Below are positions 1,250 through 41,916 of a stretch of 41,916 nucleotides of DNA, in pieces; positions within the stretch are counted from its first letter, which is position 1, and every line of letters starts with the position of its first letter. The notes under the pieces were generated by a model that saw nothing but the letters and a program-made list of their open reading frames with translations, was not told the DNA's origin and did no database searches. A program made the translations under genes and the position numbers. The DNA lies in the UHGV virus genome UHGV-0326656. One strand, written 5' to 3'. The stretch is from a virus.

Positions 1250-1360
1250 ATGCTCATCGGTTATGTACGTGTGTCAACAAATGACCAGAACACCGCATTG
1301 CAACGAAACGCACTGGAGTGCGCAGGATGTGAACTGATATTCGAGGATAAGATCAGCGGC
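1250..1360 (+). pseudogene. serine DNA invertase (Pin/Gin/Hin family), 5' fragment of 37 codons
   Basis: MLIGYVRVSTNDQNTALQRNALECAGCELIFEDKISG matches the invertase N-terminus including the catalytic-Ser motif; similarity stops after codon 37. Confidence 0.7.
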
Positions 1361-1588
1361 AGATGGGGGGGCAGTCAGGGGGTTGCCCAGCTCAATTTGT
1401 TTGATGAAAACGCGCCACGCCCGGGTAGTGAGAAACTGATGGAAGTGTTGGATCACCTCAACGCCAAAGACGGCAGGGGAACCTTGTACTTTACCAGGCA
1501 GGGTATCCAGCCACAGTTGCAGATGAAACGCGAGATGCTTTCACCTAGATATACAACGAGATATGATGACATATTAAGAGTTAAATAG
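1361..1588 (+). pseudogene. UmuC-like Y-family polymerase subunit, 3' fragment fused in frame to the invertase remnant
   Basis: Tail ...QLNLFDENAPRPGSEKLMEVLDHLNAKDGRGTLYFTRQGIQPQLQMKREMLSPRYTTRYDDILRVK resembles the UmuC/MucB C-terminus as remembered; no upstream umuC body. Confidence 0.5.
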
Positions 1589-1607: not shown

Positions 1608-2603
1608 ATGAAAGGGATATATTATGAGAATACTCGAACCTCTATACCGGGGTGGATATCAAACCTTCATGAAACTCAAAGGTTTGGTTACGCTTATGAA
1701 ACAAGTACTCACTTTGTTCATTTATATGGTAAAGCTGAACCTTTTAATGTCATATCAGTTGGCCTTACCGCAATACAAGGTAAAAGTGGGACTCTAAATG
1801 ATTGGGTTATAAATACATTTGGAGCAACTAACATCCAAACATTACAAAATGATATCGGACATGTTGTTGAAGGTGTCTGGAGACCATCTTTATATTATAG
1901 CGATGACATTCAAGGTGCGTTGTTAGTTGATCCGTTCGAGAAAATGTCGTCAGGACAAGCTCTGCGCAATCTTATTAATAAACTCGATGAATTATTTTTG
2001 TACATTGAGCCAAGCATCACAGGTCTGAAAGCATATAGCCATAAATGCAGGGAGCTATTAATTTTGGCTTGTACAGAAGTTGAGAATCAGTGGGTGTCAC
2101 TGATAAAAAAAACAAACCTAAATAATGTAGGGGCTAGATATACAACTAGGGACTATGTACGGCTTGCAGATAAATGTTTTTTAAAAGAATACAAGGTGAA
2201 TTTTAAAAATTACTCAGGCTTAAGAGATTTCACACCATTTTTATCTTGGGTTCCGACTGCCTCTACTGGCTCTTTACCTTGGTACGATGCTTATAATGGA
2301 ACTAAGCATGATAGGGAAGCAGGTTTTAATCTCGCATCATTGGAGAATGTGATGGATGCCTTATCTGCTTGTATAGTATTGTATTGTGTTAAATATGGAC
2401 CTTATGATTTGGTGTCTGGTGGGGATCTGCTTTCAGGAACGTTTAACGAGCATTTTTCTCTTAGTTTCATAAATAGTGATAAAAGTAGCTATTACGTTCC
2501 CGAATTGAATTTTAACGCAAACGCAATAACAGACTTGTGTGTGATTGACTGTTATAGAGAAAAACTCAACAAAGCATGGGTTACAGAACCTCTTGTTTTA
2601 TAG
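1608..2603 (+). CDS. hypothetical protein, 331 aa, AT-rich orphan (candidate accessory/defence gene)
   Basis: Long ORF with GAGGTGA ribosome-binding site 7 nt upstream; markedly AT-rich versus flanks; no family recognised. Confidence 0.65.
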   Translation: MKGIYYENTRTSIPGWISNLHETQRFGYAYETSTHFVHLYGKAEPFNVISVGLTAIQGKSGTLNDWVINTFGATNIQTLQNDIGHVVEGVWRPSLYYSDDIQGALLVDPFEKMSSGQALRNLINKLDELFLYIEPSITGLKAYSHKCRELLILACTEVENQWVSLIKKTNLNNVGARYTTRDYVRLADKCFLKEYKVNFKNYSGLRDFTPFLSWVPTASTGSLPWYDAYNGTKHDREAGFNLASLENVMDALSACIVLYCVKYGPYDLVSGGDLLSGTFNEHFSLSFINSDKSSYYVPELNFNANAITDLCVIDCYREKLNKAWVTEPLVL

Positions 2604-2897: not shown

Positions 2898-3206
2898 GTG
2901 ACTCACATGACAAAAACAGTATCAACCAGTAAAAAACCCCGTAAACAGCATTCGTCTGAATTTCGCAGTGAAGCCCTGAAGCTTGCTGAACGCATCGGTG
3001 TTACTGCCGCAGCCCGTGAACTCAGCCTGTATGAATCACAGCTCTACAACTGGCGCAGTAAACAGCAAAATCAGCAGACGTCTTCTGAACGTGAACTGGA
3101 GATGTCTACCGAGATTGCACGTCTCAAACGCCAGCTGGCAGAACGGGATGAAGAGCTGGCTATCCTCCAAAAGGCCGCGACATACTTCGCGAAGCGCCTG
3201 AAATGA
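2898..3206 (+). CDS. insE: IS3 transposase OrfA (HTH subunit)
   Basis: [42 protein letters not shown]... recognised as IS3 OrfA. Confidence 0.9.
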
Positions 3207-4069
3207 AGTATGTCTTTATTGAAAAACATCAGGCTGAGTTCAGCATCAAAGCAATGTGCCGCGTGCTCCGGGTGGCCCGCAGCGGCTGGTATACGTGGTG
3301 TCAGCGGCGGACAAGGATAAGCACGCGTCAGCAGTTCCGCCAACACTGCGACAGCGTTGTCCTCGCGGCTTTTACCCGGTCAAAACAGCGTTACGGTGCC
3401 CCACGCCTGACGGATGAACTGCGTGCTCAGGGTTACCCCTTTAACGTAAAAACCGTGGCGGCAAGCCTGCGCCGTCAGGGACTGAGGGCAAAGGCCTCCC
3501 GGAAGTTCAGCCCGGTCAGCTACCGCGCACACGGCCTGCCTGTGTCAGAAAATCTGTTGGAGCAGGATTTTTACGCCAGTGGCCCGAACCAGAAGTGGGC
3601 AGGAGACATCACGTACTTACGTACAGATGAAGGCTGGCTGTATCTGGCAGTGGTCATTGACCTGTGGTCACGTGCCGTTATTGGCTGGTCAATGTCGCCA
3701 CGCATGACGGCGCAACTGGCCTGCGATGCCCTGCAGATGGCGCTGTGGCGGCGTAAGAGGCCCCGGAACGTTATCGTTCACACGGATCGTGGAGGCCAGT
3801 ACTGTTCAGCAGATTATCAGGCGCAACTGAAGCGGCATAATCTGCGTGGAAGTATGAGCGCAAAAGGTTGCTGCTACGATAATGCCTGCGTGGAAAGCTT
3901 CTTTCATTCGCTGAAAGTGGAATGTATCCATGGAGAACACTTTATCAGCCGGGAAATAATGCGGGCAACGGTGTTTAATTATATCGAATGTGATTACAAT
4001 CGGTGGCGGCGGCACAGTTGGTGTGGCGGCCTCAGTCCGGAACAATTTGAAAACCAGAACCTCGCTTAG
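3203..4069 (+). CDS. insF: IS3 transposase OrfB (DDE catalytic subunit)
   Basis: 288-aa ORF overlapping orfA, with integrase-core motifs (...[10 protein letters not shown]..., ...HTDRGGQY...). Confidence 0.9.
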
Positions 4070-4099
4070 GCCTGTGTCCATATTACGTGGGTAGGATCA

Positions 4100-4525
4100 A
4101 GCTTCATCGCCACGTTCAAATGGTGTGCTGCCAATAGCGGCCATGAATATAGGCTGGCCGTCAGCCCTGCGAATGAAGTAGGGCTGTTTTATAATGCCTT
4201 CGCGCTTCCATTCGAACCAACCATCAGCAAAGCAAATTGCACGTCCATGCAACCAGAGAGGTTTGAACATTCGGCTGGTGGCCGCAGTTTCTGAGCGTGC
4301 GTTAATCAGCGGAGGTTTATTCCACCATCCGGGAGCGAATCCCCAGATAACAGGATCGAGGTGCAACTGTTCGTCGCGTTCGCTCAAAAGCAGAACTTTG
4401 GTACCGGGTGCAACGTTGAATCGTCCAATTGGTTCTGGAACGTATGGGATGTCACGCTCAGCTTCTTCTGATAGGAGGGCAAGATAGTCTTCACGCGTCA
4501 TTGATTGGGCGAAACGTCCGCACAT
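4100..4525 (-). pseudogene. yedK: SRAP (YedK-like), N-terminal part, truncated by IS3
   Basis: MCGRFAQSMTREDYLALL...FMAAIGSTPFERGDEA has the Cys2 catalytic start of SRAP/YedK; the frame runs into the IS3 end. Confidence 0.85.
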
Positions 4526-4566
4526 AGAAACCTCCAGTCACCAGACTGAAAGTATAGGGTAGGGAT

Positions 4567-4590
4567 ACAAAAAAGCCCGCATAAGCGGGC
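4567..4590 (-). terminator. rho-independent terminator-like hairpin
   Basis: On the minus strand GCCCGC-TTAT-GCGGGC followed by TTTTTT, between the ssrA fragment and the SRAP start. Confidence 0.45.
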
Positions 4591-4721
4591 TTTCATGTCA
4601 CTCGGGAGCCGCGGCTCCTTTACGTATCCTTTTTTGTCTCCTCACCGTCTAGTCGGTGTCCTGCTGAGACTGCTAACTTCCTGTTTTTGTTAGTGCTGTC
4701 CTGGCACTGTCCAATCATGAT

Positions 4722-4749
4722 TGGTGGAGCTGGCGGGAGTTGAACCCGC
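4722..4749 (-). other. ssrA: 28-nt 3' end of tmRNA (ssrA) ending CCA; att-core-like relic
   Basis: Minus strand reads GCGGGTTCAACTCCCGCCAGCTCCACCA, identical to the ssrA 3' terminus as remembered; upstream sequence does not continue ssrA. Confidence 0.7.
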
Positions 4750-5040
4750 AGACACGTCGTATGCAAGAACTTGCTGCGGCTGGATGGTGGACTTTCGATA
4801 GTGCGAGTATTGAATGATGTCCAGCCGTTATTGATTTTACGTATTTTTTGCATGAAAAGATTAGCACCTCATCCCACCGCTCCTCCATGATTTTACACCA
4901 CTGTCTCTAGAGCTCTGTGTGCCAGAAGCGGAAGTTCATACCTCTAAGTGGATATTTTGTTAAAATATGCCATCAAAATCCTTGCTACCTCATGGTTGAC
5001 AGTGATAAAAGTTGCACAAATTACTGAGAGAGAAATTACA

Positions 5041-5478
5041 ATGAGTGGAGATACCTCTGAGTTTCCTAATAAACTTCCCAGAAAGCCAATTGGTTGGCGT
5101 GAAGAATATAGTGATTTTACAGGTAGTATTATATTCTATATGATATTCCCGTTGCTTCCATTACTTTTTGAGTCAATTAACACAGGAACTCACCCTTCAA
5201 TACAATCATTAACAATTACTGCATCAATATACTCTTTTTCCATCGGTGTATCTTCTCGAGATAAAGCTATTTTTTGCTTAGGGATTTTTTGTGGTTTCAT
5301 TCTCGCTTATCTTTACGGTAAAGTTAGTGAGCCAAAAGTTATTATATATACCTGGTACTATGTAGTTACGGTGATACTACTGGCTGTAATATTTATATTT
5401 CATCTTCTCGAACGATTTAATAAACACGTGGTAGAATGTGAACCTGTTTTCTCCTTTAAGTTTACGAGAGGTATGTAA
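5041..5478 (+). CDS. hypothetical multi-pass membrane protein (alternative start at 4948)
   Basis: AT-rich ORF with several hydrophobic segments (FYMIFPLLPLLF, IFCLGIFCGFILAYLY, VVTVILLAVIFIF); perfect -35 TTGACA about 40 nt upstream; stop overlaps the next start (TAATG). Confidence 0.6.
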   Translation: MSGDTSEFPNKLPRKPIGWREEYSDFTGSIIFYMIFPLLPLLFESINTGTHPSIQSLTITASIYSFSIGVSSRDKAIFCLGIFCGFILAYLYGKVSEPKVIIYTWYYVVTVILLAVIFIFHLLERFNKHVVECEPVFSFKFTRGM

Positions 5479-5945
5479 TGGAGGATATTATATTTATGTA
5501 TGCTGGGTTGATAGTGTCTTCTTTAGCGGCAATTGTAGGCTTAGCTACATCTATCATGCATACTCGTAAAAAAGTTAAAGCTAATGAAGAGCTTGCAACT
5601 GAAATGGCAAAGAGCTTTAGTGAGCTTGAATCTATCAATAAAAGCATAGGGGATTTGGAAGCGACAATTAAAAGGATAGATGAAGATGAATTAAAGTTAA
5701 GAATAGCAATTGAATCTTTAAAGGAAATGACTTCTGATGAAAAAAAAGAATCTAGGGATATGTTGAAAAACATCGTTAATGATGAGGTGTTCATTAAAGT
5801 TCTTCTCGAAAGCTATAAAAAACTGGATACCCAGTCAAAGAAGGAGATTTATTTGACTTTTTCCAAGTCGACAGATAGAGGCCTTTATCGATATATAAAA
5901 AGAATAGCTTCATCAGTACTCGATAACTTAATGGTTAAAATATAA
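5478..5945 (+). CDS. hypothetical protein with N-terminal transmembrane helix and charged coiled-coil-like C-terminal region
   Basis: AT-rich; MEDIIFMYAGLIVSSLAAIVGLATSIM then K/E-rich heptad-like sequence; translationally coupled to the upstream ORF. Confidence 0.65.
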   Translation: MEDIIFMYAGLIVSSLAAIVGLATSIMHTRKKVKANEELATEMAKSFSELESINKSIGDLEATIKRIDEDELKLRIAIESLKEMTSDEKKESRDMLKNIVNDEVFIKVLLESYKKLDTQSKKEIYLTFSKSTDRGLYRYIKRIASSVLDNLMVKI

Positions 5946-6500
5946 ATGCGTGCGCGCGAGATACAATTTCTCGCGCATTGTGTAACCGGCGACAAAACCC
6001 TGTTATCATTATAGCGACCCGTTTAGATGGGCCATTTGTGCCCCAACAGCTTCTGGGTATAGATTTCCTCGGCCCTGTATAGATACTTTGCTAAAGAGTA
6101 TTTTAATGGTATTTTGCTTACGTACCATTCTTCTAACGAATGTCTGCCTTATCCTGTGAGCTGCCTTCGCTCAGCATTGGCCTGTTTCTCGTTGATTTAT
6201 ATACTGCGACACTAACATAGGCGGATATGTCCGCTCCTCGCTCATAACAGACATTCACTACAGTTATGGCAGAAAGGTATGCATGCTGGGTGGGGAAAGT
6301 ATGAAGGAAAAGAAAACTGCTGCGCTGTTTGTCGTCACGTTTATCTTCATTGGCTATGCAAGTCATAATACAAGGTGGGACAAAACTGAGACACATAAGG
6401 CCTCACAATGGCTTGCAAGGCTTTACATGTTTTGATGTGGTGGGACGTGTGAGCGCAGTGTTGATGGGGTAATGCTTTGAATTAGAAGCGGATTCTTATA

Positions 6501-6546
6501 ATTCGTAATGCGAAGGTCGTAGGTTCGACTCCTATTATCGGCACCA
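6501..6546 (+). other. thrW: 3' 46 nt of tRNA-Thr(CGU) (anticodon loop to CCA); prophage att core, not a complete tRNA
   Basis: ATTCGTAATGCGAAGGTCGTAGGTTCGACTCCTATTATCGGCACCA matches the tRNA-Thr(CGU) 3' part; upstream 30 nt cannot form acceptor/D arms; integrase gene starts 15 nt downstream on the opposite strand. Confidence 0.75.
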
Positions 6547-40730: not shown

Positions 40731-41162
40731 ATGGAAAAGACATATTATTTTAATCCCTCTGATTCGGGATTTTATATTTCACCAGATAGCCAAACCATTC
40801 CTGAGAACGCTACGAAAATAAACTTTACTATTTATTCTGAGTTCGCAGGAGTTGCATGGCCTGATGGTAAAATACTTGGTTCAGATAAAAATGGTTTTCC
40901 AGCATGGCAGGATGCGCCACCACTTACCAGCGAAGAATTAATCTCAATCGCTGAATCAAATAAACAGCGATTAGTTAATCAGGCCAACGAATACATGAAC
41001 AGTAAACAATGGCCTGGTAAAGCGGCGATTGGTCGTCTGAAAGGTGAGGAACTGGCGCAATATAATTTGTGGCTGGATTATCTGGACGCACTGGAACTGG
41101 TCGATACTTCCAGTGCGCCAGATATTGAATGGCCTACGCCTCCGGCAGTTCAGGCCAGATGA
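40731..41162 (+). CDS. tail fibre assembly protein (Tfa)
   Basis: 143 aa immediately after the fibre gene; C-terminal 50 aa shared with the inverted copy. Confidence 0.85.
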   Translation: MEKTYYFNPSDSGFYISPDSQTIPENATKINFTIYSEFAGVAWPDGKILGSDKNGFPAWQDAPPLTSEELISIAESNKQRLVNQANEYMNSKQWPGKAAIGRLKGEELAQYNLWLDYLDALELVDTSSAPDIEWPTPPAVQAR

Positions 41163-41736
41163 CATCCGGCGCGGTGCTGGTATCTGTTGCCGTCACCGCG
41201 TCAATGTAATCCAGCACAGCGTTAAGTCTGGTTGTTTCTGCCTGCGTCGGTTTACGTCCGGCCTGCAATTTCAGTTGAATCAGACTGATGGAAGCCATTG
41301 CTGCATCAATCAGTGACTGGCGCTGTGCTTCTGCCGCTTCTACTGCGGCACCGTATTGTGCCTCAGTATCTGTCACCCATTTTTCACCATCCCATTTATC
41401 GTATGGCGTTAACGGGGCGATAGTGGTTGTATTTTCGGGATAGTCGCCTAGTGCTGTGATTTCTTTGGCATCTCCCGTTTCGGTGTTATAGACTATTTCA
41501 CCTCGATGGTCTGACACATATTCCCATGATTTTAAATCCACAGAACGGAAAATTGTATAACCAGCCTTATATGTACCAGGAGCGTCTAAACAGGAATATG
41601 CAGGGATACCGACACCAATGGCAAGATATTCATTTGAAGTGGAAATATATTCCCGTGTTTCGCCATCATAGTTATAGACGGTAATATTTCCCGCCTTTGT
41701 AGCAATAAACTCGCTATTTAATACAGCGTTATCCAT
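41134..41736 (-). CDS. tail fibre assembly protein, inverted-orientation copy (Tfa')
   Basis: 200 aa, convergent with Tfa; about 85% identical to the 122..724 ORF. Confidence 0.85.
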   Translation of the reverse strand: MDNAVLNSEFIATKAGNITVYNYDGETREYISTSNEYLAIGVGIPAYSCLDAPGTYKAGYTIFRSVDLKSWEYVSDHRGEIVYNTETGDAKEITALGDYPENTTTIAPLTPYDKWDGEKWVTDTEAQYGAAVEAAEAQRQSLIDAAMASISLIQLKLQAGRKPTQAETTRLNAVLDYIDAVTATDTSTAPDVIWPELPEA

Positions 41737-41737
41737 T

Positions 41738-41916
41738 ATGCAGCCCTCACGATATAGTTAAATGCAATATTCCGTGGGCGAGTATCGGCAGGAACGACAT
41801 ACATTTCACCAATTGCCCGCTCATTAGAGTTGTTCAGCAATAGGCTTGAGCCATTACTGTCATGACCCGTAATTAAGATATCATTGGACAAAATAAGTGA
41901 GCCCGTACCTGCAGGA
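41738..41916 (-). CDS. alternative tail fibre C-terminal segment, partial (runs off the window)
   Basis: Minus-strand frame ...NDILITGHDSNGSSLLLNNSNERAIGEMYVVPADTRPRNIAFNYIVRAA with stop overlapping the Tfa' start; same terminal motif as the 724..1179 ORF. Confidence 0.7.

Follow-up and report, generated by a model that had tools for sequence, protein, structure and literature searches.

The lambda RexAB pair and its analogues in actinobacteriophages, Sbash gp30/31, CarolAnn gp43/44 and Butters gp30/31, rely on a partner protein that controls a membrane protein, leading to depolarisation and abortive infection (PMC7542560). In phage P2_AC1, a three-gene system composed of a TIR protein and two membrane proteins protects against lambda, LF82_P8 and P2 (Rousset et al. 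2022, PMC9122126). The SieA protein of P22 is an inner-membrane protein of 162-164 amino acids with three predicted helices, plus one more in types B and C, and a conserved motif near its C-terminus (PMC10883804). Phage-borne membrane-protein pairs that act in defence or exclusion are already known as a kind. Here we describe two small overlapping genes, A and B, at positions 5041-5945 of the virus genome UHGV-0326656 (the window, meaning the entire stretch of 41,916 nucleotides (nt) that was analysed), whose products have no detectable homology to the described members. A and B form one operon of a horizontally mobile cassette of ~1.3 kb, carried as non-essential prophage cargo, and there seems to be about an even chance that their products make up a two-protein inner-membrane complex directed against phages. 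The parts of the cassette are as follows.

4948..5040, plus strand: 5' leader, non-coding, 88-95% identical across contexts
4958..4966, plus strand: extended -10 element TGTTAAAAT, located by pattern search and invariant in all five aligned contexts
4996..5001, plus strand: TTGACA, a -35-like hexamer 40 nt before the ATG at 5041
5041..5478, plus strand: gene A, a 145-residue inner-membrane protein with four predicted helices
5466..5471, plus strand: GAGAGG, Shine-Dalgarno sequence of gene B, read from the sequence inside the 3' end of gene A
5478..5945, plus strand: gene B, a 155-residue bitopic membrane protein, from its open reading frame (ORF) and hydropathy
5946..6255, no strand assigned: non-coding 3' tail of ~310 nt that moves with the cassette; it aligns in E. 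coli, Pectobacterium, Citrobacter-type and Klebsiella-type loci, after which homology stops
5954..5976, plus strand: GC-rich hairpin GCGCGAGA / TCTCGCGC, directly after the stop codon of B, its stem invariant in all contexts

Like RexAB and the actinobacteriophage pairs, A and B are two-gene prophage cargo that includes one small four-pass inner-membrane protein, and the 145 residues of A compare with 144 in RexB. Unlike in RexAB, the gene for the membrane protein stands first, and the partner B is anchored in the membrane rather than soluble like the 279-residue RexA, with no RexA-type domain detected. The pair would resemble RexAB and its actinophage analogues in logic, not in ancestry. When the profile built from 89 A sequences was aligned with lambda RexB in hhalign, the probability was 0.6% over 10 aligned columns, and A was rejected as a RexB homologue; B was likewise rejected as a soluble RexA-like sensor, given its N-terminal membrane helix and the lack of a Pfam or PADLOC match. 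The likeness to the P2_AC1 system, named Rst_2TM_1TM_TIR in DefenseFinder, lies in the use of small membrane proteins in a variable locus of P2 and in a TIR link found in a distant branch of the A family. Unlike that system, the window has no TIR gene and most A-B pairs stand alone; moreover, the P2_AC1 genes adjoin the large gene gp05, which we take to be replication gene A, while the A-B pair of P2-like phages occupies the slot between genes G and FI. The window cassette is not the P2_AC1 system, as no TIR gene lies in or beside it, and homology of A to AC1 gp04 (126 residues) was dismissed at an hhalign probability of 0.2%; AC1 gp03 has 185 residues. Like SieA, A is a small prophage-encoded inner-membrane protein with no enzymatic domain. 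Unlike SieA, which is a single gene restricted to P22-like phages, the A-B family comprises two linked genes in 44 of 48 loci and extends across many genera and non-phage islands. The A profile gave a probability of 0.6% against the single P22 SieA sequence in hhalign, and a homologous relationship was rejected here as well.

Wider searches also place the two proteins outside the characterised families, as the sequence-only reading of this DNA had held. Scans of A and B against Pfam, NCBIfam and PADLOC v2 returned nothing significant, with weak membrane-protein noise for A and noise-level matches of coiled-coil type for B (e.g., BLOC1_2, capH and LmuB). PDB sequence searches with the family profiles of A and B gave nothing below E 0.09, and the structural model of A had no match at E <= 0.001 in the PDB or the viral fold library BFVD when searched with Foldseek. 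Among PADLOC models of CBASS-type effectors with four transmembrane helices (4TM), one of the 89 A-family members matches (E 0.0067) and the A protein of the window does not. A does belong to PHROG 22626 (E 6.9e-27; residues 17-139 against profile positions 6-130, or 125 of the 133 positions), but because that family has no assigned function, membership shows only that A has relatives in phage genomes. Both proteins are labelled "hypothetical protein" in all public sources, and a literature search by accession and by descriptive terms, full text included, found no paper on them.

The organisation of the pair is simple and well preserved. Both reading frames are on the plus strand, with gene A listed as 4948/5041..5478 and gene B as 5478..5945, and the stop/start overlap TAATG noticed earlier is confirmed: the TAA of A (5476-5478) and the ATG of B (5478-5480) have one base in common. 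In the cassette alignment this junction is kept across contexts as ACGAGAGGT.T.TAATGGA. The sequence-only reading also singled out the pair as much more AT-rich than the surrounding DNA, and the difference is large, with a guanine-cytosine (GC) content of 0.333 in the pair vs 0.467 in its flanks. In windowed terms, GC is 0.33-0.35 over 5001-6000 vs 0.48-0.53 over 4001-4800 and 0.46-0.50 past 6400. Nor is this a peculiarity of one prophage, as pair GC lies below flank GC in 32 of 34 distinct loci. For gene A, a length of 146-176 residues and a multi-pass membrane protein had been proposed; the membrane protein stands, while the 176-residue reading from the GTG at 4948, which is also the call of the annotation pipeline PGAP, was rejected in favour of the 145-residue form from the ATG at 5041. 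The later start is preferred because the PHROG 22626 profile covers residues 17-139 of the shorter form, because homologues at 36-39% identity are 129-145 residues long and begin near residue 12, because the gene caller picked the 145-residue form in Pectobacterium, and because the only upstream element conserved across contexts falls within the supposed extension.

That element, TGTTAAAAT, is proposed as the promoter of the cassette and sits 10 nt inside the left edge of the Pectobacterium unit, where homology begins at 4948; in Citrobacter/Klebsiella-type loci the left edge lies at ~4920. The perfect -35 hexamer TTGACA reported ~40 nt upstream of gene A is present, but neither its conservation nor a -10 partner could be upheld: orthologous cassettes have TGGACA or TGGACG in its place, no acceptable -10 is found at 16-18 nt, and the promoter scan did not report it. 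At the other end of the operon, the hairpin at 5954-5976 has a folding energy of -15 to -16 kcal/mol with a z-score of only -0.78, which is not statistically unusual, and no T-run follows it; it may end or stabilise the transcript. The remainder of the 3' tail is 76-85% identical between contexts vs 89-94% in the coding part, about the level of neutral divergence, and carries frameshifting indels with no conserved ORF. It has no Rfam match, and RNAalifold finds little covariation among four sequences. A minus-strand ORF of 109 residues in the tail was discarded, being open only in Pectobacterium, broken elsewhere and devoid of a family match. In E. coli the tail occurs only together with the A-B pair. 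We read it as hitch-hiking DNA from a recent common source, plus one conserved hairpin.

The boundaries of the cassette emerge from an alignment of two E. coli prophage variants, Pectobacterium, a Citrobacter/Enterobacter-type island and Klebsiella-type contigs of ~110 kb. Homology starts at ~4920-4948 and ends at ~6255, with unrelated sequence beyond. One and the same 1.3-kb unit, neutral flanking DNA included, is thus found in four unrelated contexts, and by this alignment the cassette moves as a unit between unrelated locations. Ratios of nonsynonymous to synonymous substitution rates (dN/dS) between the orthologous cassettes of E. coli, Pectobacterium, the Citrobacter/Enterobacter-type island and the Klebsiella-type contigs are 0.02-0.16 for A and 0.26-0.32 for B; judged by these values, both genes are real and under purifying selection.

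Beyond these close relatives, a profile search with A recovers 119 homologous clusters of 107-224 residues, none with a Pfam domain, from E. coli, Pectobacterium, Morganella, Proteus, Vibrio, Photobacterium, Pseudoalteromonas, Acinetobacter, Luteimonas and metagenomes. A metagenome scan contributed 44 more loci, bringing the A family to at least 123 non-redundant sequences. Across the loci retrieved, 48 non-redundant A genes are followed directly by a same-strand ORF, mostly at an intergenic distance of -8 to +11 nt, and in 44 of the 48 this ORF is recognised by a hidden Markov model (HMM) of the B family. The two genes therefore constitute a conserved two-gene unit and not a chance juxtaposition. 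No relative was found among the GTDB species representatives scanned, and the plasmid collection scanned held no copy of the cassette. Among 5426 complete E. coli genomes, six have the variant described here, always at the end of this prophage type next to the attachment (att) site.

Protein A is the better conserved and better modelled of the two. An AlphaFold (AF2) model built on an 89-sequence alignment is a confident four-helix bundle, with a predicted local distance difference test (pLDDT) score of 90.5 and helices at 21-48, 54-71, 75-95 and 104-131. Lysine and arginine are abundant in the N-tail, in loop 2 and in the C-tail but scarce in loops 1 and 3, and the predicted topology is therefore N-in/C-in. 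Three motifs are conserved, LPLLPL.FE, IG.SS and H..ER(Y/F)N(K/R)HV..C.PF. Residues kept in at least 80% of 123 sequences are P37, L38, L39, P40, L41, E44, Y64, I68, G69, S71, S72, G93, H121, E124, R125, Y/F126, N127, H129, V130, P135 and F139, and most of the conserved polar residues map to the predicted cytoplasmic ends of helices 2 and 4.

Protein B is more variable. Five features recur in its family, beginning with an N-tail of ~7 residues of net negative charge, followed by one hydrophobic helix, a basic juxtamembrane patch of ~4 lysines or arginines in the 15 residues after it, a helical stretch that varies in length, and a C-terminal motif, L.Q(P)S..G(R)..Y(I/L).K(L/I), or Q.S..G...Y in its short form, which reads K.T..G...Y in the protein of the window. 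The charge asymmetry is strong (0.28 lysine plus arginine before the membrane helix vs 4.15 after it), so the tail is predicted to be cytoplasmic, in an N-out/C-in arrangement. The 155 residues, N-terminal membrane helix and K/E-rich tail first described for the window protein are all borne out, but the coiled coil suggested for that tail is not: an AF2 model with seven close homologues is all-helical and of low confidence (pLDDT 48.6), and because the model is poor, a coiled coil is a guess only. An exhaustive HMMER search with the narrow subfamily profile of B found nothing outside the subfamily except two weak matches to long proteins, which we take to be coiled-coil noise. At each distance B diverges faster than A, with A/B identities of 92/80, 97/88, 86/66 and 55/32%, a pattern that would be expected of a specificity component. 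In most loci B has 116-176 residues. Two variants depart from this plan. In L060 (1494-2432), B has 312 residues with an extra hydrophobic stretch at 210-268 and Trp/Gly-rich repeats, and in L075 (4420-7838) it carries a fusion to the C-terminal portion of DUF1822 (E 1e-14), and an 837-residue CHAT-domain protein with predicted membrane helices comes next.

The locations in which the family is found span many phage slots and defence islands beyond this prophage, and they bear out the suggestion that the cargo-region setting is one typical of anti-phage genes. In P2-like phages, a homologous pair (36-38% identity) lies between the tail-fibre assembly gene G and the sheath gene FI, a variant present in two of the 5426 E. 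coli genomes. In P2 itself the same slot is occupied by fun(Z), annotated as blocking T5, and a 2026 preprint lists a defence hotspot within the late/tail genes of P2 (10.64898/2026.02.27.708500). The pair is also found in the nin region of a Morganella lambdoid prophage, at the head-tail gene junction of Acinetobacter prophages, and on contigs of ~110 kb that carry Dam and RNase H genes and whose B proteins are named from Citrobacter braakii and Klebsiella quasipneumoniae; the size of these contigs suggests that they may be phage-plasmids. Among chromosomal islands, one in Pectobacterium has AIPR and DUF3800 genes beside the pair, and a CP4-like island has Mrr, HNH/McrA-type and YjiT/YjiV-type genes. 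In the metagenomic locus L050 (4001-6744), an HNH gene lies upstream and the Thoeris genes ThsA (1e-206) and ThsB (6e-67) lie directly downstream. Further metagenomic neighbours include a PARIS-like AriA/AriB pair, Wadjet JetC/JetD, PDC-S33 and, in two loci, bSEFIR.

Some of these neighbours may be functionally linked to the pair. In a distant branch of the A family (L038-L040; 5018-6786 in L038), A is preceded, at a distance of 54 nt and in the same orientation, by the gene of a 309-residue protein recognised by PADLOC as "TIR-TM" (3e-73). The TIR domain of this protein shares 45% identity with the TIR protein of phage P2_AC1. The downstream partner in this branch has 138 residues and an N-terminal membrane helix, and is unrecognised by the B-family HMM. 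In L055 (561-3521) and L071 (498-3750), two loci that are deeply diverged, with identities of 34% for bSEFIR, 40% for A and 28% for B, the pair has a same-strand bSEFIR gene upstream. These arrangements suggest that membrane pairs could be exchangeable partners of TIR-superfamily proteins in some lineages. An HMM built from the TIR proteins of L038, AC1 and mEp390 matches only L038-L040 among all loci, the window included. Because the window and most contexts lack TIR and SEFIR genes, and because the 1.3-kb unit moves alone, the pair of the window most likely works alone. Separately, phage mEp390 gp47 (L043, 2495-3313) is an AC1-type TIR homologue (38% identity) located alone between the Q antiterminator and holin genes of this lambdoid phage, with no membrane-protein partner annotated beside it.

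Within the window, the cassette belongs to the cargo of a prophage. At thrW the window carries a tandem of two related tailed prophages. Its tail-fibre-assembly region at 1-756 is repeated at 41013-41768, and the A-B pair is the last cargo ahead of the att core of the left prophage. The features around it are listed below.

1250..1588: chimeric ORF; residues 3-39 match a resolvase/invertase N-terminus and residues 61-111 match DUF4113 (UmuC-type C-terminus)
1608..2603: gene of 331 residues in a low-GC stretch (~0.36); PHROG 19461 (E 5e-139), function unassigned, no Pfam domain
2898..3206 and 3203..4069: orfA and orfB of an IS3 element that adjoins the SRAP gene
4097..4525, minus strand: gene of an SOS-response-associated peptidase (SRAP), 142 residues here, covering Pfam SRAP positions 1-136 of 214; 227 residues in strain TB06052
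4722..4826, minus strand: fragment of transfer-messenger RNA (tmRNA), a weak match (E 1e-4) below the gathering threshold
6501..6546, plus strand: 3' 46 nt of thrW (tRNA-Thr), the att core between the tandem prophages, an exact match to the annotated thrW of L027
6561..7724, minus strand: integrase gene, following the thrW core

The pair had been placed between a 3' relic of ssrA and the thrW att core; the thrW core is secure, and the relic amounts to the weak tmRNA match. The SRAP gene was apparently shortened by insertion of the IS3 insertion sequence, and the chimeric ORF, both pieces of which PGAP marks as pseudogenes in a sister genome, looks like a recombination scar in the cargo slot. 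The 331-residue gene is a second uncharacterised cargo gene of this slot. In sister prophages the slot, located after the invertase and tail-fibre-assembly genes, holds a GIY-YIG gene with a cytosine methyltransferase and a type II endonuclease (L027, 12190-16042), a DUF262 protein (L028, 9923-11812), or a NeuD-type acetyltransferase, a MaoC dehydratase and two unknown genes (L002, 6294-9752). It behaves as a variable cargo hotspot.

What, then, might the pair do? The sequence-only reading offered it as a candidate undescribed exclusion or defence module, and the wider context, namely the P2 slot, the defence islands and the sister cargo slot, lends support to that candidacy; an anti-phage defence function of some kind is on balance probable. 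A would form a compact four-helix membrane bundle with both ends facing the cytoplasm, where a strictly conserved polar patch (S71, S72, H121, E124, R125, N127 and H129) would be exposed. B would be anchored by its one N-terminal helix and present ~125 helical, fast-evolving residues in the cytoplasm. B could then serve as sensor or gate and A as membrane effector, such that upon infection the A-B complex would alter membrane permeability or potential and infection would be aborted. We infer the binding of A to B, sensing by B, conduction or perturbation of the membrane by A, and phage resistance, and the role of A as a "pore" is likewise an inference; an abortive mechanism of this sensor/effector type specifically is held tentatively, at somewhat below even. 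A bolder proposal is that A-B is a self-sufficient two-protein immune module widespread in Proteobacteria and their phages, in which the His/Glu/Arg/Asn/His site on the cytoplasmic face of A would be a metal- or lipid-binding or catalytic centre and the module a portable effector cartridge repeatedly wired to TIR/SEFIR sensors; we consider this doubtful.

Several points weigh against an anti-phage membrane complex. The support is guilt by association throughout, and the enrichment of defence genes among the neighbours is a qualitative statement with no background rate at random loci; no defence gene lies near the pair in L023, L026, L041 or L067. Neither A nor B has a recognisable sensor, nucleotide-binding, pore or enzymatic domain, and in fold searches A resembles generic helical bundles only. 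The His/Glu/Arg/Asn/His patch suggests a specific binding or catalytic site over a plain channel. Furthermore, the cassette is rare in E. coli, given the six genomes with this variant and the two with the P2-slot variant. Finally, sequence alone cannot separate abortive infection from entry blocking.

This last point bears on the main rival, superinfection exclusion, in which A-B would block the DNA-delivery conduit of an incoming phage, as P22 SieA does, and the cell would survive. A and B are both small, lack an enzymatic domain and belong to the inner membrane, as would be fitting, and prophages carry them close to att sites or in slots among tail genes, the P2 slot being that of fun(Z), annotated as a T5 blocker. 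SieA is likewise a small inner-membrane protein with a conserved motif near its C-terminus (PMC10883804). Yet A has no homology to SieA by hhalign, SieA acts alone whereas two genes are kept together in 44 of the 48 loci, and the predicted topology puts the conserved polar sites of A, and most of B, on the cytoplasmic rather than the periplasmic side. A spread over many Gammaproteobacteria, soil and water metagenomes and non-phage defence islands also fits poorly with blocking the ejection proteins of one phage group, and exclusion of this kind seems unlikely. A different possibility retains the effector role and moves the sensing elsewhere: A-B would act only when triggered by a nearby or distant TIR- or SEFIR-type sensor, the copy in the window being orphaned or its sensor supplied in trans. 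The TIR-TM gene 54 nt upstream of a distant A with its small bitopic partner on the same strand, the bSEFIR genes upstream in two deeply diverged loci and Thoeris directly downstream in L050 would all agree with such an arrangement, as would the pairing of the same TIR family with other membrane proteins in the validated P2_AC1 system (PMC9122126). However, by eye a sensor gene is counted in only 3 of ~25 contexts with enough upstream sequence, and the TIR HMM matches L038-L040 only. No sensor gene is present in the compact two-gene inserts of the window, the P2 slot, Morganella and Acinetobacter, the 1.3-kb unit travels on its own, and Pfam and PADLOC scans detect no known signal-binding domain (SLOG, SAVED, CARF) in B. 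Strict dependence on such a sensor is therefore rather remote.

Other membrane cargo of prophages has nothing to do with defence. Small proteins encoded by two overlapping genes in one operon are characteristic of toxin-antitoxin pairs, the immunity proteins of pore-forming colicins are small multi-pass inner-membrane proteins, and the thrW phages of S. flexneri carry gtr O-antigen genes at the equivalent prophage end. A-B might thus be an addiction pair, provide immunity to a pore-forming bacteriocin or modify the envelope in lysogenic conversion, and it is true that sugar-acetyltransferase genes adjoin the pair in strain D9 and that the His/Glu/Arg/Asn/His patch could be catalytic. On the other hand, searches relaxed to E 1 give no match to GtrA, bacteriocin-immunity or toxin-antitoxin families, and the adjacent genes include no glycosyltransferase, so that a GtrA-type identity for A was rejected. 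There are no bacteriocin genes nearby, the neighbours are mainly anti-phage systems, and the pair also occurs in lytic-module phage slots, where addiction modules make little sense; a role outside defence is quite improbable. Still further from the evidence is the idea that the pair is left over from, or a version of, a phage lysis cassette, in which A would be holin-like and B would correspond to an Rz-like inner-membrane spanin (i-spanin). Four-helix holins exist, two holins appear in the viral fold list for A (E above 2), and B, which resembles an i-spanin in size and in its order of N-terminal membrane helix and helical tail, has weak matches to Rz-like spanin profiles (phrog_739, E 0.006; TIGR03495, E 0.013). 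These and the other best spanin matches (E 0.006-0.2) are below cut-offs and far under family thresholds, and no endolysin, lipoprotein or outer-membrane spanin (o-spanin) gene accompanies the pair, with no endolysin or lipoprotein ORF in 4900-6260. The host prophages keep a complete lysis cassette of their own (holin, lysozyme and Phage_lysis in L021/L022), the A-B cassette is also found in non-phage chromosomal defence islands, and the charge pattern of B predicts a cytoplasmic rather than a periplasmic tail. The chance of a lysis relic is very nearly negligible.

Returning to a defence pair, its significance would lie in its economy. If protective, A-B would be a new defence family consisting solely of two very small membrane proteins in which no domain can be recognised. 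Systems of this class escape homology-based tools: PADLOC has no model for this one and the databases say hypothetical. At 900 bp, with clear conserved residues to mutate, it would be a tractable model, and the existence of stand-alone and TIR/SEFIR-linked versions may help in asking what triggers membrane effectors and whether these and their sensors are swapped as separate cartridges. If this reading is true, a function would be assigned to part of the unexplained cargo in the tail-gene slot of P2 and at the att-proximal end of thrW prophages.

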